Notes under the pieces: model-generated
What the model saw: the letters and a program-made list of their open reading frames with translations, nothing else
What the model was told of the DNA's origin: nothing
Database searches by the model: none
Translations under genes and position numbers: made by a program
Sequence record: MN850611.1
Length of the DNA stretch: 64,000 nucleotides
Strand: one strand, 5' to 3'
Origin: Escherichia phage nataliec
Shown here: positions 18,946-38,598 of the stretch, one piece after another
How positions within the stretch are numbered: the stretch's first letter is position 1
Layout of the letters: every line of letters begins with the position of its first letter

Positions 18946-19527
18946 TCAAGAGTATTTTTTAGGCAGTAATGCACTGCGCTTGTTACTCTCTTCACTCAAC
19001 AGTGCGATAAATTCATCACCTTTACCCTTCCACGGACTAAATGTAGGGATGTGTTCTCTGATAGCATCAATCACTGTTTTCAGGGCGTTATTTTTTAACC
19101 ACCAATCAGACACTGCCGAAGCTACAATATAATAAGCACCATCATCTGTGAAGATTGGCTCAGAGATACATGGTGAAATCATAGTGGTGATGATAGAGCC
19201 GTTATTCATGTAGTATGTTCTTTTTTCAACCTTATCAAGAAGCTTATGTAGGTCTGCAAAGAGACTCACAACCTCTTTATGGTCAATATCTTTTTCAAGA
19301 TTTGCTCTGTATTTCAGTAGTGCAGCATCAACCTCTTTATCATTGAATTTGAAGTATTGTACTTCTTCATTCACGCATACACTGATGTTGTTAGTGTTTA
19401 TCGTCAATTTGCACAGTTTGACTGGAGAATTGATGTTAGTCTGAAAAAGTGCTACACAGCCTTCTACATTTCCGAAATGTTTTACTAATGTAACTTCTGG
19501 TTGGATATGCTCATGTTCTTCTGACAT
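18946..19527 (-). CDS. hypothetical protein
   Basis: 193 aa ORF. Confidence 0.5.
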   Translation of the reverse strand: MSEEHEHIQPEVTLVKHFGNVEGCVALFQTNINSPVKLCKLTINTNNISVCVNEEVQYFKFNDKEVDAALLKYRANLEKDIDHKEVVSLFADLHKLLDKVEKRTYYMNNGSIITTMISPCISEPIFTDDGAYYIVASAVSDWWLKNNALKTVIDAIREHIPTFSPWKGKGDEFIALLSEESNKRSALLPKKYS

Positions 19528-19871
19528 TATAGTTTCCTCATTAAATACTTTTTAAGTTGTGTGTTAGGTTTCTCAAAAACTTCTATAGAAGATATCTTGA
19601 CAGATTCACCACGCATACCTGTGTGTTTGAATATATAGTACTCTAACATCCCTATATACTTTGCTGGTAAGTCATGTTTGACATACACCGTTACAGAATC
19701 TTCAAATTCAACAACCTTTGTACCATCTTTGTAGTTAAACTCTTTAGGATGGTTGTAGTTGTCGATGTCGTACATTAAAAAGAGTCTTTTCCGTTGCATA
19801 TCAAGCTTATTGGTTAAAGACTCTTTGATGTCTGAGAAGTTTTTATACACTATGACGTGGAGCTTACTCAT
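19527..19871 (-). CDS. hypothetical protein
   Basis: 114 aa ORF. Confidence 0.45.
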   Translation of the reverse strand: MSKLHVIVYKNFSDIKESLTNKLDMQRKRLFLMYDIDNYNHPKEFNYKDGTKVVEFEDSVTVYVKHDLPAKYIGMLEYYIFKHTGMRGESVKISSIEVFEKPNTQLKKYLMRKL

Positions 19872-20157
19872 CGTTAAACTCTCTGACGAAGAAGTAGTTG
19901 ACTTTATTATTACCTACCATAAGGTCAAAGCAGGTATTCTCAAAAGGTTTGTTGTAGGCATCATATGAAGTATACGTATCAGCTACTTGTTTAGTGTTGA
20001 GCTTTTTACTTGATGGATTTAAGAGGCCACCATACAGTTTCTTGATAGCCTCTTCTACAACAGACCAGATGATTTCGTCAGTAATTTCTTCGTACAGGTC
20101 AAGTTCACGCTCTAGTGAGAAGTCACAAATAGGGAAAATAACCTGTACTTTACTCAT
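19864..20157 (-). CDS. hypothetical protein
   Basis: 97 aa ORF. Confidence 0.45.
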   Translation of the reverse strand: MSKVQVIFPICDFSLERELDLYEEITDEIIWSVVEEAIKKLYGGLLNPSSKKLNTKQVADTYTSYDAYNKPFENTCFDLMVGNNKVNYFFVREFNDE

Positions 20158-20555
20158 TAACGAATCACCTGTGAGACTTGAATTGCTTCAGTTACTGACA
20201 AGTCACCTACTTTCTCTTCTTTGATAAAGGTGAAGGTAAGTTCAACAGGCTCTCGCTCTTCTTGCTCAACTGGAACACCATTAAGCTCATCAAAGATTGA
20301 TTGGGTTGTCCAATCTTCACCACCATCTGGGTAGTGGATTGCGTAAAGAGGGAACTCCATGTCAAACCAACCAAATACAGGACAACCATCTTCATCATCT
20401 CGTACTCGATGAAGTGTGCTTCCAGACCCTGTAAACTGAAGGAATAAATCTCCGTTGCACTTGTATATTACTGCATCGGCAAAACCTATATCTTCTCGAC
20501 CATCATGGCCAAACGTGTCAACTTTTACTTGGATATCTCTAACATCTTTATTCAT
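20157..20555 (-). CDS. hypothetical protein
   Basis: 132 aa ORF. Confidence 0.45.
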   Translation of the reverse strand: MNKDVRDIQVKVDTFGHDGREDIGFADAVIYKCNGDLFLQFTGSGSTLHRVRDDEDGCPVFGWFDMEFPLYAIHYPDGGEDWTTQSIFDELNGVPVEQEEREPVELTFTFIKEEKVGDLSVTEAIQVSQVIR

Positions 20556-20946
20556 AAAAACCTCTCTCTGCTTGTTCGATTTTTGCTCTTAAAGTTTCGC
20601 AATGATGTAGATGGTAGTTAGCTTCTTGTTCATGTGTTGCTAACTGCCTTTCCAGAACAGTTTTATAGTAACCTGCAAGTTGCTCTTTTGTCAACGGGTG
20701 TTCTGAAATAATATCAAGTCCACTTTCGCCAAGAGGGTTGAATTGTCCATGCTCATTGACATTGTAAGTCTCAAACTTGAACAGACCATTGTTCACAGAC
20801 TCAATAGGCGACAGCTCAACAAGCTCTACAGTAAACCGTGTATATACCTTGTCACCTCTTGAAACCACATTGTTTCCGACAATGCGTACAAGCGAGCCAT
20901 TACGAGTGTACTTAAAAGTTCCAAAGTCACTAGCCCAAAGTTTCAT
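20548..20946 (-). CDS. hypothetical protein
   Basis: 132 aa ORF with RBS aaggaga. Confidence 0.5.
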   Translation of the reverse strand: MKLWASDFGTFKYTRNGSLVRIVGNNVVSRGDKVYTRFTVELVELSPIESVNNGLFKFETYNVNEHGQFNPLGESGLDIISEHPLTKEQLAGYYKTVLERQLATHEQEANYHLHHCETLRAKIEQAERGFYE

Positions 20947-20959
20947 AGTTTTCTCCTTA

Positions 20960-20988
20960 GAAAATAAAAAAGGCTCCCGAAGGAGCCT
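20960..20988 (-). terminator. rho-independent terminator after the endolysin gene
   Basis: On the minus strand: hairpin aggctcc-ttcg-ggagcct followed by TTTTTTATTTT. Confidence 0.7.
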
Positions 20989-20997
20989 ATGAAGATA

Positions 20998-21462
20998 TTA
21001 CTTTGGATATACACTGTCAAGATAAATGTCAGCTTCCATTCTACGTCTGTTTTTCAGGCCGTTTGAAGTGACCTTCTTACCTTTTACTGTAACCTTGTTC
21101 CACCACTGCATAGCTTCTGCACAACCGACCTTATTACCAGCATTGTGGCGCTTGATAAATGTGGAATCCTGCATAGCTGTGATACCGATGTTGTATGTTT
21201 CACTTACAAGTGCATCGAACTCATTCTGAGAAGTTGGAACCTTGATGGCTTTGTTCACTGCTGCAACGAACTTTTCAACATCTGCAAGAAGATACTGTTC
21301 AGCTTGTTCAGCGGTAATCTTCATGCCCATCTTAACAGGCTTCCCACCAATACGAATTGTCCCATACCCAATTGTGGGGATTCCAGCAGAATCTTCGTAA
21401 GCCTCAAGCTTAAGACCTTCAAAGAACTTAATAGCTTCTAAACCTTTTCTTGAGAGTTGCAT
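20998..21462 (-). CDS. endolysin, GH24 lysozyme (T4 e / lambda R family)
   Basis: N-terminal LEAIKFFEGLKLEAYEDSAGIPTIGYGT matches the catalytic Glu, Asp and Thr region of T4-type lysozymes; 154 aa. Confidence 0.8.
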   Translation of the reverse strand: MQLSRKGLEAIKFFEGLKLEAYEDSAGIPTIGYGTIRIGGKPVKMGMKITAEQAEQYLLADVEKFVAAVNKAIKVPTSQNEFDALVSETYNIGITAMQDSTFIKRHNAGNKVGCAEAMQWWNKVTVKGKKVTSNGLKNRRRMEADIYLDSVYPK

Positions 21463-22346
21463 TACGCCTCCCCTGCTGGGTTAACTGTAACTGTTGCTGC
21501 ATTAGATGTTACAGAGCCACCTGCACCAGTAACTACACAGGTGTAGCTTCCTGCATCAGCAGCGGTTGCACCTTCTTTGGTGTAAGTTGCAGCAGTTGCG
21601 TCTGGGATGACTTCCTCACCTTTCTTCCACTGATAACCTGTTGCACCAGTAGCCACAACATTCAGCGTTAAGGTCTCACCTTCAGTGATTTCTTGATTTG
21701 CTGGCTGTTGAGTGATTACTGGAAGTGCATTCACAGTAACTGTTGCTGCATCTGAGGTAACACTTGTTCCACCCTCTCCAGATACAACACAAGTGTATGA
21801 ACCAGCGTCAGAAGGTGCTACTGACTGTTTTGTGTAAGTTGCAGAATTGGCACTAGGGATGTCCTCACCATCCTTTTTCCATTGATATCCAGTGGCGTTA
21901 GTTGCTAGAATGCTTAGAGTAAGTGTGCCACCCTCATTGACTGTTTGACCTGTTGGTTGCTGAGTAATTGCTGGTGGCTTAATAGCATCCTTCAGCTTAG
22001 CATTCAACATTGAGAACGGCTTAACTCTTGCCAACCATTCACAGTAAATAGTGTCAACATCTTTACCATTGATGATTGCATACTGCAAATCCATGAAGAA
22101 ATCAGCAGTTCTCATCTGTGCACCAACACTGTAAAGGAGTTCATCACTAAAAGGAACTTTGTAGTCTGGTTTGTAATCAAACTTCTCAACTTCTGCAATA
22201 TCAGCTTCAGGCCAATATGAGCTATAGGTGAGTGGTAAAATAGCCTCTTGATATGTTCTAAAATCATATCTCTTACCAGCTTTTACGTTTGCAATGAAGC
22301 CCTTCACAAACTCTTTAAAGTCTGGGTAAGTCTTTGCTTTAATCAT
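21462..22346 (-). CDS. protein with two tandem Ig-like domains
   Basis: C-terminal half has two about 90-aa repeats (ITQQP...TGYQWKK...AGSYTCVV...ATVTVN); N-terminal domain is paralogous to the next gene. Confidence 0.55.
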   Translation of the reverse strand: MIKAKTYPDFKEFVKGFIANVKAGKRYDFRTYQEAILPLTYSSYWPEADIAEVEKFDYKPDYKVPFSDELLYSVGAQMRTADFFMDLQYAIINGKDVDTIYCEWLARVKPFSMLNAKLKDAIKPPAITQQPTGQTVNEGGTLTLSILATNATGYQWKKDGEDIPSANSATYTKQSVAPSDAGSYTCVVSGEGGTSVTSDAATVTVNALPVITQQPANQEITEGETLTLNVVATGATGYQWKKGEEVIPDATAATYTKEGATAADAGSYTCVVTGAGGSVTSNAATVTVNPAGEA

Positions 22347-22714
22347 TTCTTTTCAGCCTCTAAATGTGCGTTTAGTCTAAAATAACCTTTGTGATTCGGA
22401 GATACATCACCAACAACAATACCTTTAACCTTATAGCCTTTACCAATTACATACTGGATATCCATAAGGAATCTTCCAAGTCCAACAATATGGAACATTG
22501 GATATAATAGGTTCTCAGAATCTGGAATATTGATTTCAGGTTTGTAGGTACGCTGTTCGATTGTTGGTGTAATATCTTCTTCAGGCCATTTGCTGAGTCT
22601 CCATGTCAAAGGTGTTGGGATAACATCATTAAGGTTGTACCTTTCACCATTTTGCACGGAATTGATATAGGATTGTAGGAAGCAATAAAAGTCTTTTGCA
22701 CTCTTAGCTTTCAT
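22343..22714 (-). CDS. paralog of the N-terminal domain of the Ig-like protein
   Basis: Shared motifs KRYDF/ERYNL and FFMDLQYAI/FLMDIQYVI; 123 aa. Confidence 0.5.
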   Translation of the reverse strand: MKAKSAKDFYCFLQSYINSVQNGERYNLNDVIPTPLTWRLSKWPEEDITPTIEQRTYKPEINIPDSENLLYPMFHIVGLGRFLMDIQYVIGKGYKVKGIVVGDVSPNHKGYFRLNAHLEAEKK

Positions 22715-22761
22715 TAAATATCCTTATAAATAGTTAAAGGGGCATCAGCCCCTATTCACAC

Positions 22762-23352
22762 TTAAGCTTTGGTCTTAAGTAGGTTCTTAAGTTTTTTAAG
22801 ATTCATACTCTCATCAAACTTAAAACCAAATCCATTGACATAATCAATGAACTCGGATTTCTTACTAAGTGACAATGCGTAACTCATATCAAAGTTCTTA
22901 CTTGTTTCTGCGTCTGGACTAGAGTTCACATCAAATGAAATTTCTGTAGGCTCTTGCTTACTTTTTCTCATATTATCAACCAACAAACATGTATAGTTTG
23001 CTGGATAGAAGTTTACACTACCATCAACGTAGCTGTACTTATTATTATGGATAAGGTTGGAAAATACCTTAAGGAATGTTTCTGAGTCGTGGCAAACAAG
23101 TTTGAATTGGCTGCTCTCTCCAAGCGCAACTAATGAGTACGGACTTTCACTATCAAAGTCATAATTTAGATTCGATGCCGTCACTGTTACACGCATCAAG
23201 TTATTAGCAATAGTCTTCTGTTTAAAAGAATTTTGAACATAGTGAAGACCTCTATCACACTGATTGACTAGCTCTTTAAGCAGGTCATTTGCATATGGCG
23301 AATTAATTGATACAGAGCCATCACTATTGTAATTAAAACTTACTGTTAACAT
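22762..23352 (-). CDS. hypothetical protein
   Basis: 196 aa ORF; hairpin AGGGGC-atca-GCCCCT downstream at 22723-22740. Confidence 0.5.
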   Translation of the reverse strand: MLTVSFNYNSDGSVSINSPYANDLLKELVNQCDRGLHYVQNSFKQKTIANNLMRVTVTASNLNYDFDSESPYSLVALGESSQFKLVCHDSETFLKVFSNLIHNNKYSYVDGSVNFYPANYTCLLVDNMRKSKQEPTEISFDVNSSPDAETSKNFDMSYALSLSKKSEFIDYVNGFGFKFDESMNLKKLKNLLKTKA

Positions 23353-24424: not shown

Positions 24425-25840
24425 ATGAGCGAGTTATTTAAACATGCGCACCTTCATGCAGGTCGAACTGAAAATGGTGCTGTAAACCATACTTCATCAA
24501 TGTCTGCTTTAGTAGATTTTTATAAAGCTGCTGGTTCAAGTCGTAGCAATGTAGAAATCTTACCAGACCTTTTCTATAAAGCTTTGCATGAGGATGTTGA
24601 TGTTGCAGTTCGTATTTTACTGCATATGCGAGATGTACGAGAAGGTATGGGTGAGCGTAAAGCTTTCCGAACTGTTTTACTTCAAGCGATTGAAGATAAA
24701 GTTTTAGAGCCTACACAGGTTCTTCGCATTATGGATAAGATTGCAGAACTTGGTCGTTTTGATGACTTCAAAATCTTCGTGGGTACTCGTTTCGAGACAG
24801 ATGCCTTCAAGCATTTAGAAGCAGCATTACTAGACCCTGCAACAGCAGGTTTGGCAGCTAAGTGGTTACCACGAGTCAAGCCACGTCATAAGCAGTTTGT
24901 AAAACGTTTCTGCAAGTTTGCCAACTTGAGTGAGAAAGAGTACCGCACACTGTTGTCTGCACTATCTGATACAGTTGAGCAAAAAATCTCTGCTAATGAG
25001 TTTGGTAAGATTGACTACAGTAAAATTCCTTCACTTGCTGCTGCACGTTACCAAAAACTCTTTAATCGTAAAGATGGAGAACGCTACAAAGCTTACATCG
25101 AGTCCTTTTCAAAAGGTGAGACTAAGATTAACGCTGGTGCTGTTTACCCATACGATGTGATTAAATCTGTCAAGTATGGTAATGCAGATGTTGCTAATGA
25201 GCAGTGGAAAGCACTACCAAACTGGATGGCAGAAGGTGAAAACATCCTATGTATGTCTGATGTTTCAAGCTCAATGTCTTGGGTGAATTTTGGTTCAATT
25301 ACTGCTCTTGATATTGGTGTATCACTTGCATTGTATGTGGCAGAACGCAATACAGGTTTCTTTAAGAATGAGTTAATGGTTTATTCAACAAACCCTCACT
25401 TCATCGAACTGAGCGGTGATTTACGAAACCGTCATCGTCAGGTGATGCGACACGTTGAATATGGCTCAACTAACTTACAGGCAGCTTTTGACCGTATTCT
25501 TGAGACAGGTAAAAGAAACAACTTGACTCAGAAAGATATGCCAAGTAAGCTTATCATCTTCTCCGATATGGAGTTCAATCAGGTTGATGGAGCTAACGGT
25601 CGTACAAACTTTGAAGCAATTCGTAGTAAGTACAAAAAAGCTGGATACGAAATGCCTCAACTGGTATTCTGGTACTTAGCAAACCGTAATGGTACTTGCG
25701 AAGTGTCTGTTAAGGATAACGGTGTAGCAATGGTATCTGGTTTTTCTCCAGCTACTTTAAAAGCTCTGCTTGGTGGTGAGAAGTTTGACCCAATCAGCGT
25801 AATGCTCAAAGCAGTAATGATTGACCGTTATATCTGGTAA
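24425..25840 (+). CDS. vWA-domain protein with Ro60/TROVE-like features (candidate Rsr ortholog)
   Basis: C-terminal vWA with MIDAS-type DxSxS (CMSDVSSSMS) and distal FSDME; the ordered blocks VYPYDVIKSVKYG, DVSSSM and IIFSDMEF parallel Ro60 blocks IHPFHILIALETYKTG, DVSASM, VFTDNE as I recall them; 471 aa. Confidence 0.45.
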   Translation: MSELFKHAHLHAGRTENGAVNHTSSMSALVDFYKAAGSSRSNVEILPDLFYKALHEDVDVAVRILLHMRDVREGMGERKAFRTVLLQAIEDKVLEPTQVLRIMDKIAELGRFDDFKIFVGTRFETDAFKHLEAALLDPATAGLAAKWLPRVKPRHKQFVKRFCKFANLSEKEYRTLLSALSDTVEQKISANEFGKIDYSKIPSLAAARYQKLFNRKDGERYKAYIESFSKGETKINAGAVYPYDVIKSVKYGNADVANEQWKALPNWMAEGENILCMSDVSSSMSWVNFGSITALDIGVSLALYVAERNTGFFKNELMVYSTNPHFIELSGDLRNRHRQVMRHVEYGSTNLQAAFDRILETGKRNNLTQKDMPSKLIIFSDMEFNQVDGANGRTNFEAIRSKYKKAGYEMPQLVFWYLANRNGTCEVSVKDNGVAMVSGFSPATLKALLGGEKFDPISVMLKAVMIDRYIW

Positions 25841-26005: not shown

Positions 26006-26082
26006 CTCTGTTTAGCTCAGCTTGGTAGAGCGTTCCGTTTGGGGCGGTAAGGCCGGAGGTTCAAGTCCTCCAACAGAGACCA
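26006..26082 (+). tRNA. tRNA-Pro (anticodon UGG), CCA encoded
   Basis: Hand fold: acceptor ctctgtt/aacagag, D stem gctc/gagc, anticodon loop tTTGGgg, T arm ggagg-ttcaagt-cctcc. Confidence 0.65.
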
Positions 26083-26099
26083 AATTTAAAGGGGTTACT

Positions 26100-26456
26100 A
26101 TGAGATTTTTAAAAGAATGTCCAGTTCATGGTTTAACTGAACATAGCATTCATAAGAATGGTAACGCCGGTAATAGAGTAAATTGTCTAAAATGTTGTGC
26201 ATTAAGGACAAAACTTAGAGAGAATGCCAATAGAGAGAAAGCATATAAGCTTTATGGCGATAGCTGCAAAATTTGTGGCTATAATAAATGTAAAAATGCT
26301 TTAGAATGGCATCACCTTAACCCAAACGAAAAAGAGAATACACCATCAAAACTTATGGGTGCATCTTGGGAAAAGGTTAAAAAAGAACTTGATAAATGTG
26401 TTTTGCTATGTGCTAATTGCCACAGAGAGGTTCATAGCGGAATTACAATGATTTAA
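26100..26456 (+). CDS. HNH homing endonuclease
   Basis: Motifs WHHLNP and CANCHREVH; ORF track start 26022 overlaps tRNA-Pro, so ATG at 26100 (RBS aaagggg) is preferred. Confidence 0.7.
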   Translation: MRFLKECPVHGLTEHSIHKNGNAGNRVNCLKCCALRTKLRENANREKAYKLYGDSCKICGYNKCKNALEWHHLNPNEKENTPSKLMGASWEKVKKELDKCVLLCANCHREVHSGITMI

Positions 26457-26457
26457 T

Positions 26458-26532
26458 GTCGTAGAAGGCAAATGGTTAGCCACCTGACCTTCAATCAGTT
26501 GCTCGCAGGTTCGAATCCTGTCTACGACACCA
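26458..26532 (+). tRNA. tRNA, anticodon ambiguous (loop cCTTCAa, possibly UUC/Glu with C33)
   Basis: Acceptor gtcgtag/ctacgac, T arm gcagg-ttcgaat-cctgt, CCA encoded; anticodon stem has a mismatch. Confidence 0.5.
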
Positions 26533-26538
26533 GTTTTG

Positions 26539-26612
26539 ACAGAAGACCAATTACAGCAAACTTAATCTTATTCATCTGAAGGTAAATCGGACAAAGAAGA
26601 TATTTGGTCTGG
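26539..26612 (+). ncRNA. helix-bracketed structured element 1
   Basis: 5' CAGAAGACCAA pairs with 3' TTGGTCTGG, enclosing about 55 nt; sits between two tRNA genes. Confidence 0.35.
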
Positions 26613-26623
26613 TCATTAAGAAT

Positions 26624-26700
26624 TGCGGGTATAGAGAAAGGGCGTCTCACATGTCTCATTAGCATGGTATCGGCAGGTTCGACTCCTGCACCCGCCTCCA
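26624..26700 (+). tRNA. tRNA-Met or Ile2 (anticodon CAU)
   Basis: Acceptor (t)gcgggt/acccgc(c), anticodon arm catgt-ctCATta-gcatg, T arm gcagg-ttcgact-cctgc, CCA encoded. Confidence 0.6.
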
Positions 26701-26706
26701 AATTTA

Positions 26707-26770
26707 CAGAAGACCGTTTACAGCAATATTTATTAAATTTTTAGCGGAAAAATTGAAAGATACGGTCTGG
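26707..26770 (+). ncRNA. helix-bracketed structured element 2
   Basis: 5' AGAAGACCGTTT pairs with 3' ACGGTCTGG; internal hairpin AATTTTT-agcgg-AAAAATT. Confidence 0.35.
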
Positions 26771-26783
26771 TAATACTAAACAT

Positions 26784-26860
26784 GGTTAGGAAGCACATAA
26801 GGTATGTGCGGTCGCCTGTTAAGCGAATGGCACAGGGTTCGAATCCCTGACTAACCGCCA
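26784..26860 (+). tRNA. tRNA-Asn (anticodon GUU)
   Basis: Acceptor ggttagg/actaacc, D stem gcac/gtgc, loop ctGTTaa, T arm caggg-ttcgaat-ccctg, CCA encoded. Confidence 0.7.
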
Positions 26861-26929
26861 AATTTAGGAGAGAAGCGATTGCTCACCGATTTGTAAGGTG
26901 CAAGTCCTTAGCCTGAATAGAAATTAAAT

Positions 26930-27017
26930 GTGTCGTTATCCCGTAGATGGTAGCGGTGGGGACTGTAAATCCCTTGTCATTGAGACTCGGTAGGTTCGAC
27001 TCCTACACGGCACACCA
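26930..27017 (+). tRNA. tRNA-Tyr (anticodon GUA), class II
   Basis: 88 nt; acceptor gtgtcgt/acggcac, anticodon arm gggga-ctGTAaa-tccct, long variable arm, T arm gtagg-ttcgact-cctac. Confidence 0.7.
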
Positions 27018-27022
27018 ATAAA

Positions 27023-27100
27023 GGTTATGTAGTTTAATTTGGTTAAAATACTCCCCTGTCACGGGAGATGATGAGGGTTCAAATCCCTTCATAACCGCCA
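27023..27100 (+). tRNA. tRNA-Asp (anticodon GUC)
   Basis: Acceptor ggttatg/cataacc, anticodon arm ctccc-ctGTCac-gggag, T arm gaggg-ttcaaat-ccctt. Confidence 0.75.
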
Positions 27101-27161
27101 ATTTTGAGAGGGCTATTTAGCCCCTCCCTTAAAGAGTTCTTACGAGTATTCTTTAAAGGAG

Positions 27162-37494: not shown

Positions 37495-38598
37495 ATGTTG
37501 ACTAATTCTGAAAAAAGCAGATTTTTCCTTGCTGACCTGACTGGTGAAGTCCAGTCTATCCCAAATACTTATGGGTATATTTCCAACTTAGGTCTGTTCC
37601 GTTCAGCACCAATCACCCAAACTACTTTCCTTATGGACTTGACTGATTGGGATGTTAGCTTGCTTGATGCGGTAGACCGTGATAGCCGTAAAGCAGAGAC
37701 TAGCGCACCTGAGCGTGTTCGTCAAATCAGCTTCCCAATGATGTACTTCAAAGAAGTTGAAAGCATCACTCCTGATGAAATTCAGGGTGTACGTCAGCCA
37801 GGCACTGCAAACGAACTGACTACTGAAGCTGTAGTACGTGCTAAGAAGCTGATGAAGATTCGTACCAAGTTCGATATTACTCGTGAGTTCCTGTTTATGC
37901 AAGCTCTGAAGGGTAAAGTTGTTGATGCTCGTGGTACTCTGTATGCTGACCTGTACAAGCAGTTCGACGTTGAGAAGAAAACTGTTTACTTCGACCTTGA
38001 CAACCCTAATGCTGACATCGACGCTTCTATTGAAGAACTGCGTATGCACATGGAAGACGAAGCTAAGACTGGCACTGTAATCAACGGTGAAGAAATTCAC
38101 GTAGTTGTTGACCGTGTATTCTTCAGCAAACTGGTTAAGCATCCTAAGATTCGTGACGCTTATCTTGCACAGCAGACTCCGCTGGCTTGGCAACAGATTA
38201 CTGGTTCTCTGAGAACTGGTGGTACTGACGGCGTTCAGGCTCACATGAACACCTTCTACTACGGTGGTGTTAAGTTTGTCCAGTACAACGGTAAGTTCAA
38301 AGACAAGCGTGGTAAGGTTCATACTCTGGTGAGCATTGATGGTGCTGGTGCAGAGGTTGGTGTAGGACACGCTTTCCCTAACGTTTCTATGCTTGGTGAA
38401 GCAAACAACATCTTCGAAGTGGCTTATGGTCCATGTCCTAAGATGGGTTACGCAAATACACTTGGTCAGGAACTGTACGTATTCGAATATGAAAAAGACC
38501 GTGACGAAGGTATTGACTTCGAAGCTCACTCTTACATGCTGCCATACTGTACTCGTCCTCAGTTGCTGGTAGATGTTCGTGCTGACGCTAAAGACTAA
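37495..38598 (+). CDS. major capsid protein
   Basis: 367 aa, directly after protease and decoration genes, strong RBS ggaga, codon usage typical of highly expressed genes. Confidence 0.65.
   Translation: MLTNSEKSRFFLADLTGEVQSIPNTYGYISNLGLFRSAPITQTTFLMDLTDWDVSLLDAVDRDSRKAETSAPERVRQISFPMMYFKEVESITPDEIQGVRQPGTANELTTEAVVRAKKLMKIRTKFDITREFLFMQALKGKVVDARGTLYADLYKQFDVEKKTVYFDLDNPNADIDASIEELRMHMEDEAKTGTVINGEEIHVVVDRVFFSKLVKHPKIRDAYLAQQTPLAWQQITGSLRTGGTDGVQAHMNTFYYGGVKFVQYNGKFKDKRGKVHTLVSIDGAGAEVGVGHAFPNVSMLGEANNIFEVAYGPCPKMGYANTLGQELYVFEYEKDRDEGIDFEAHSYMLPYCTRPQLLVDVRADAKD

Follow-up and report, generated by a model that had tools for sequence, protein, structure and literature searches.

The stretch of DNA considered here (the window) is the 64,000-nucleotide piece of the Escherichia phage nataliec genome held in record MN850611.1, and the locus in question is a pair of open reading frames (ORFs) on its minus strand, immediately upstream of the endolysin gene, which encode proteins of 294 and 123 amino acids (aa). 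The region shares 97.9% identity with Escherichia phage VpaE1_ev108, and nearly all of the 252 records that match it are Felixounavirus or other Ounavirinae (Escherichia, Salmonella, Shigella and Citrobacter phages); the window itself is Felixounavirus. The first-pass annotation, made from the letters alone, had located both ORFs and the neighbouring endolysin correctly, had described the two products as N-terminal paralogues, the longer of them with two added immunoglobulin (Ig)-like repeats, and had suggested either a lysis accessory or a decoration protein encoded remotely. The latter suggestion proved right for the longer product: judged by its sequence, it is the orthologue of the capsid decoration protein named Hex-Dec in phage Bas63 (PMC12609058), gp20 in Sf14 (PMC11821841) and gp36 in Felix O1. 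Thus, the Ig-bearing feature is already known, having been structurally characterised in 2025, and it is the 123-aa product that constitutes a modest and apparently unreported addition.

A phmmer search of the PDB with the 294-aa protein returned the Bas63 protein (9ncf_S, 460 aa; E 4.8e-248) and its Sf14 counterpart (9c2d_S, 372 aa; E 1.6e-166; structures 9C2D/9C3A), both aligned from residue 1 and spanning the capsid-binding domain (CapBD) as well as the Ig-like domains. The protein is also a full-length match to phrog_3995 (E 2.6e-170) and is 99% identical to a protein of phage JK55. In the cryo-electron microscopy (cryo-EM) maps of the orthologues (9NCF, 9C2D), Hex-Dec/gp20 binds the T=9 head as a monomer, its N-terminal CapBD (~118 residues, with the pseudo-C2 lobes L1 and L2) occupying the hexamer centres at the facet edges, of which there are 60; facet-centre hexamers are not bound, and flexible Ig-like domains project from the CapBD (PMC12609058, PMC11821841). 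In Sf14 gp20, Arg79 and Arg107 are salt-bridged to Asp221 of the major capsid protein (MCP; PMC11821841). Both arginines are present in the window protein and invariant in 30 orthologues, and the window MCP, nearly identical to 9ncf_A (E 1.8e-246), likewise has Asp at residue 221. Moreover, orthologues have been found in virions by mass spectrometry (MS), as shown for Sf14 gp20 (PMC11821841) and, in published Felix O1 data, for gp36 (31.6 kDa, 14 peptides); we checked the Felix O1 numbering, in which ORF36 is the Hex-Dec orthologue, ORF37 the small paralogue and ORF35 the endolysin. The remoteness of the gene also agrees with the known cases: 9.4 kb separate it from the beginning of the structural module and 15 kb from the capsid gene, which is on the opposite strand, and the Bas63 authors place hex-dec more than 10 kb outside the structural module (PMC12609058). 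Whole-length orthology to Bas63 Hex-Dec, Sf14 gp20 and Felix O1 gp36 is thus accompanied by a shared CapBD with Arg79 and Arg107, shared I-set repeats, a shared locus (small paralogue to endolysin) and a shared MCP partner with Asp221; the only difference of the 294-aa protein is its Ig number, which is two in the window, four in Bas63 and three in Sf14. There is essentially no counter-evidence to its identity as Hex-Dec.

From the 88-99% identity to the orthologues we infer that the window protein binds as a monomer at edge-hexamer centres. In each of the 60 edge (pentamer-proximal) hexamers, the central depression would receive the N-terminal CapBD of one Hex-Dec monomer, fixed by salt bridges between its Arg79 and Arg107 and MCP Asp221, while the two flexible I-set Ig-like domains would point outward from the head.

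Most GenBank records describe the 294-aa product differently, as a tail protein. The label 'HK97 major tail subunit' was the original one in Felix O1 (AF320576), and 'tail protein' has since spread to ~250 genomes and has reached even the UniRef names of the Ig-less paralogue. Besides these database labels, such a reading could appeal to the PHROG matches of the Ig region, which include major tail proteins. However, outside the Ig domains (aa 120-292) the protein shows no similarity to tail proteins; its N-terminal domain has matches only among capsid-bound CapBDs, and two independent cryo-EM structures place the orthologues on the capsid. These published structures refute a tail assignment, to which we give practically no probability; in light of the 2025 capsid structures, the 'tail protein' annotation is a legacy error.

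Table 1. Features of the locus and the capsid partner gene, in window coordinates
Feature	Position	Strand	Basis
Hex-Dec orthologue, 294 aa	21462-22346	-	phmmer vs PDB; phrog_3995
Capsid-binding domain (CapBD) of Hex-Dec, aa 1-120, with Arg79 and Arg107	21987-22346	-	aligned to solved CapBDs
Ig-like domain 1, aa 125-208, I-set/Ig_3 type	21723-21974	-	Pfam Ig_3 at 124-189
Ig-like domain 2, aa 209-294	21465-21722	-	Pfam Ig_2 at 209-288
Ig-less paralogue of Hex-Dec CapBD, 123 aa, phrog_4463	22343-22714	-	BLASTP, AlphaFold2 model, Foldseek
ATGA overlap, paralogue stop / Hex-Dec start	22343-22346	-	sequence
TAATG overlap, Hex-Dec stop / endolysin start, preceded by GGGGAGG Shine-Dalgarno	21460-21464	-	sequence
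Endolysin, GH24 phage lysozyme	20998-21462	-	PF00959 E 6.7e-41; phrog_7
Intrinsic terminator, AGGCTCCTTCGGGAGCCT then T-run	20971-20988	-	terminator scan
GGGGCTGATGCCCC hairpin, 47-nt spacer upstream of paralogue	22737-22750	-	sequence
Major capsid protein (MCP), Hex-Dec binding partner, Asp221	37495-38598	+	9ncf_A E 1.8e-246

The two Ig-like repeats were borne out by profile search, since Pfam Ig_3 (E 6e-22), Ig_2 (E 8e-20) and I-set (E 1e-15) each match two stretches of the 294-aa protein, and the motifs by which they had been recognised do occur in two copies each (TGYQWKK at aa 152 and 236, AGSYTCVV at aa 181 and 265). Compared with each other, the domains (aa 125-208 and 209-294) show 66% identity at the protein level and 67% at the DNA level. 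In the 30 fetched loci, Hex-Dec is 210, 294, 377 or 461 aa long, corresponding to one to four Ig domains, the same range that the Bas63 authors give for the genus (PMC12609058). The first Ig domain of the window corresponds to the first Ig of the three- and four-Ig forms (92% identity to that of the four-Ig form), and the second is 93-94% identical to the terminal Ig of the four- and three-Ig forms. Hence, the length polymorphism reflects the gain or loss of internal repeats, which agrees with, and slightly extends, the report on Bas63 (PMC12609058). As to function, the weak surface binding suggested by the first-pass annotation would agree with an adhesive role proposed by both author groups (PMC12609058, PMC11821841). 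By analogy with T4 Hoc, the Ig domains may help the phage to adhere weakly to surfaces, mucus or other particles.

The likeness to Hoc extends to its being a non-essential monomer at hexamer centres that holds a string of Ig-like domains off the head. Nevertheless, the two proteins differ in several respects: the capsid-binding domain of Hoc is C-terminal, so that the domain order is reversed relative to Hex-Dec; the Hex-Dec CapBD is larger, topologically distinct and pseudo-C2 symmetric (PMC12609058); the 'Hoc-like' PHROG matches cover only the Ig region (aa 120-292); and Hex-Dec sits on a subset of hexamers only. T5 pb10 (PDB 5LXK, 8ZVI) is similar in having an N-terminal capsid anchor, a C-terminal Ig-like domain and hexamer-centre binding, but only the Ig domain aligns (query 132-207 to pb10 81-159), the anchor is unrelated in sequence and pb10 carries a single Ig.

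The 123-aa product resembles the N-terminal part of Hex-Dec. BLASTP aligns the two at 38% identity over 101 aa (E 9e-17), their PHROG families, phrog_3995 and phrog_4463, cross-match reciprocally (E 2.7e-16 and 3.1e-15), and phmmer aligns paralogue residues 2-117 with residues 3-117 of 9ncf_S (E 6e-12). These alignments argue, far beyond chance, that the ORFs are paralogous, as the first-pass annotation had noticed; the 130 aa that it gave for their common part was too long, the shared region being ~117-120 aa, and it had not recognised that this shared domain is a capsid anchor. The paralogue is a full-length match to phrog_4463 (E 2.9e-79), a family conserved in Felixounavirus, Mooglevirus and Suspvirus, and its length is constant at 122-124 aa in 31 genomes. 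It has no Ig-like domains, ending at residue 123 with no Pfam match. NCBIfam offers no informative family for either protein, and the Pfam, PHROG and NCBIfam libraries gave no defence or anti-defence family for the paralogue.

A first AlphaFold2 model of the paralogue, built from a shallow alignment (predicted local distance difference test, pLDDT, 64), gave no meaningful Foldseek matches and was discarded as uninformative. The model from a deeper, diverse alignment (pLDDT 77; predicted template modelling score, pTM, 0.77) matched the solved CapBDs and nothing else in the PDB, namely 9c2d_S (E 1.5e-7; template modelling scores, TM, 0.78/0.80) and 9ncf_S (E 3.8e-7; TM 0.75/0.76), with the next match at E 0.34. 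According to this model, the paralogue keeps the CapBD fold. What it shares with Hex-Dec/gp20 is that fold only: it lacks both the Ig domains and the contact arginines, and it is unreported in the structures. Neither structure paper contains the words paralog or duplication or refers to the neighbouring gene (PMC12609058, PMC11821841).

The two families have been conserved to different degrees. For the paralogue, the median pairwise ratio of non-synonymous to synonymous substitution rates (dN/dS) is 0.126, against 0.044 for the CapBD of Hex-Dec in the same genomes; the former value indicates a functional gene under purifying selection, although one that evolves ~3 times faster than the CapBD. 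When the two families are aligned jointly, they share 34 invariant columns with the same residue, comprising scaffold motifs such as PLT, WPE-DI, LLY, F-MD-QY and LNA-L, and a further 36 columns are fixed but different, R79G among them. The isoelectric point (pI) has shifted from 5.5 to 8.6 in the paralogue.

The genes are tightly packed and, with the endolysin gene directly downstream of Hex-Dec, form one transcription unit, which ends at a strong intrinsic terminator that is the same element as the Felix O1 terminator t35. The ATGA overlap is expected to couple the translation of the paralogue to that of Hex-Dec, and the TAATG overlap likewise suggests translational coupling of Hex-Dec to the endolysin. 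Upstream of the paralogue, the GGGGCTGATGCCCC hairpin is followed by TTTAA and does not vary, even among phages in which the paralogue has become a pseudogene; it may divide middle from late transcripts, either as a partial terminator or as an element of RNA stability or processing. A late-promoter motif sought with the conserved sequence upstream of the paralogue gave three matches at no more than three mismatches, which is not above chance, and a scan for sigma-70-like promoters showed no enrichment over shuffled sequences. In a published, semi-quantitative reverse transcription polymerase chain reaction (RT-PCR) study of Felix O1, ORF36 and ORF37 fall into the late (60 min) class together with the portal and tail-fibre genes, and ORF35 and ORF38 peak at 25 min.

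Such a layout could also suggest a lysis accessory function (holin, antiholin, spanin or endolysin regulator) for one or both genes, as they share the transcription unit of the endolysin, with which Hex-Dec appears translationally coupled, and no recognised holin lies beside the lysin in Felix O1-like phages. However, neither protein has a membrane-spanning or signal segment (the Kyte-Doolittle maxima in a 19-residue window are 1.04 for Hex-Dec and 1.14 for the paralogue, below the 1.6 threshold for a transmembrane segment), and neither matches a lysis-family profile. For the 294-aa protein the idea is effectively refuted by the physical presence of its orthologues on capsids; the paralogue is homologous to a capsid-binding fold, and Erwinia phage Coenus has its annotated holin elsewhere, downstream of the endolysin. 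A lysis function, the other suggestion of the first-pass annotation, thus found no support, and we regard it as extremely unlikely.

The adjacency to the endolysin is better understood from the distribution of the family. Searched against 1.84 billion representative proteins, the shared-domain profile found only 12 clusters; a word-indexed homologue search had reached only relatives of at least 67% identity, and the exhaustive profile search reached further. The CapBD occurs fused to I-set Ig domains (P0056, P0060), to Big_2 (P0057, P0058) and to a Big-like domain (P0061), and it occurs alone in the paralogue family, including the 44%-identical P0055. In a distant relative (P0059, L034:4001-4462) the Ig domains are replaced by a low-complexity tail of 30 residues, rich in Lys and Ser, so that the same anchor may there bear a different, charge-based appendage for display or adhesion. 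A 205-aa gene beside P0057 in L033, considered as a possible further paralogue, turned out to be the ORF38-like neighbour. Mooglevirus Sf13 and a divergent 87-kb relative (L031) have the tandem pair followed by a lysozyme gene; L034, Erwinia phage Coenus and LPML1, which is classified in the Ounavirinae, have a single CapBD gene, flanked by an ORF38-like gene and the endolysin. This recurrence indicates that the endolysin adjacency is an ancestral layout of the subfamily rather than a functional link to lysis. The same comparison points to a later origin of the Ig-less duplicate, in the enterobacterial branch of the Ounavirinae. Regarding LPML1 itself (OK283618.1, L040, 'Listeria phage LPML1'), the 87-kb record shows Felix O1-type synteny and an RrrD-type lysozyme; its Listeria host label looks doubtful, as does that of the one 'Staphylococcus' record among the Felixounavirus matches.

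Taking these results together, we consider it highly probable that the 294-aa protein is Hex-Dec, that the 123-aa protein is a duplicated CapBD, and that the proximity of both to the endolysin is inherited synteny. The 123-aa gene is a tandem duplicate of the CapBD alone, made late together with Hex-Dec and retained by purifying selection, whose product may bind hexamer centres transiently or weakly, or may interact with Hex-Dec. The paralogue is present in ~232 of the 252 genomes and is dispensable. With low confidence, we postulate that it is a dispensable late accessory of head morphogenesis or decoration; we do not think that it is a stoichiometric virion component, a lysis protein or a stable structural protein.

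Several observations weigh against a capsid-related role of this kind. At the Hex-Dec contact positions, the paralogue has an invariant Gly for R79 and Asn or Gln for R107. The shotgun proteome of Felix O1 virions does not include ORF37, although it did include proteins of 9.7-13 kDa, and neither cryo-EM study (Bas63, Sf14) shows density on the non-decorated hexamers. In 19 of the 252 records the gene is a pseudogene that has lost its start codon and ~230 nt internally, and this allele is common to Salmonella, E. coli and Shigella isolates. The timing of expression comes from the one RT-PCR study mentioned above, and the adhesive role of the Ig domains on Hex-Dec is an analogy with Hoc. Altogether, a role that has nothing to do with the capsid would fit the results on the paralogue equally well. 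Among the other published sources, the wV8 and UAB_Phi87 papers hold no usable virion protein lists for this locus, and the paper on Gifsy/Felix O1 resistance gives no phage escape mutations.

One such unrelated role would be neofunctionalisation, in which the old domain serves only as a scaffold for an activity off the capsid, for instance the binding of a host or defence factor. Both capsid contacts are lost, the pI has shifted, 36 positions are fixed but different, dN/dS is three times the CapBD value, and the protein is missing from virion data; some lineages do without it, as is often the case for accessory host-interaction genes. Nonetheless, its strict late timing and translational coupling to Hex-Dec fit a morphogenetic role better, and no defence, anti-defence or other profile matches it; we therefore hold neofunctionalisation to be somewhat unlikely, if a serious candidate. 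We also considered whether the paralogue could be a capsid-interacting protein overlooked in the current structures, either as a low-occupancy or symmetry-averaged plug of the 20 facet-centre hexamers or as a transient placeholder or competitor that steers Hex-Dec. If true, the placeholder or competitor would explain the restriction of Hex-Dec to edge hexamers, but we rate an overlooked capsid partner as decidedly unlikely.

In its most definite form, this idea would make the paralogue a third decoration protein, an Ig-less plug of the 20 facet-centre hexamers on the true three-fold axes. The full CapBD fold, the late expression and the coupling to Hex-Dec would suit such a protein, and the change of contact residues is fixed and non-random, with the Gly invariant. 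According to the Sf14 authors, the geometry of Asp221 is different in true three-fold hexamers (PMC11821841); possibly the altered surface (Gly78, Asn/Gln107) fits the shifted Asp221 there, although we find that proposal very doubtful. Icosahedral averaging would, moreover, blur a monomer on a three-fold axis. Against this, both structure papers report facet-centre hexamers without density, the protein is absent from a virion proteome in which smaller proteins were seen, and the gene has been lost in 19 viable isolates. Hence, a plug of the facet centres appears very unlikely, and we retain the duplicated CapBD as a dispensable late accessory, at the low confidence given above.

The value of these results is partly corrective, given that ~250 genomes still carry the name 'tail protein' and that the odd position of the gene is explained by inherited synteny. 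The paralogue adds a small new element, that is, a conserved, late-expressed, Ig-less tandem duplicate that has lost the known capsid contacts, and natural isolates that lack it are available for comparison, so that its function is directly testable. Furthermore, independent fusions have joined the CapBD to three classes of Ig-like domain (I-set, Big_2 and Big-like), which makes it a natural modular display anchor. Felix O1-type phages serve in Salmonella detection and biocontrol, and Hex-Dec offers a non-essential capsid display platform for their engineering.

Several neighbouring genes were recorded along the way. A 196-aa protein of phrog_4034 (22762-23352, minus strand) is the constant upstream neighbour of the CapBD gene or genes across the Ounavirinae, the Erwinia and LPML1 phages among them; Phage_Inh_N matches its L034 homologue faintly, and its Felix O1 homologue peaks earlier (25 min) than the decoration genes. 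Downstream of the terminator, small, tightly overlapping genes for proteins of 132, 132, 97, 114 and 193 aa occupy 18946-20946 on the minus strand (phrog_4266, phrog_4348 and others), with a synteny conserved across the genus. On the plus strand, 24425-25840 encodes a 471-aa DUF2828/vWA protein, labelled 'RNA-binding protein' or 'vWFA protein' in its relatives, which lies directly upstream of a cluster of 24 tRNA genes (26006-31347, plus strand). Throughout the subfamily, a TROVE/Ro-like RNA-binding module of this kind is paired with a tRNA array, and DUF2828 is also found in L034.

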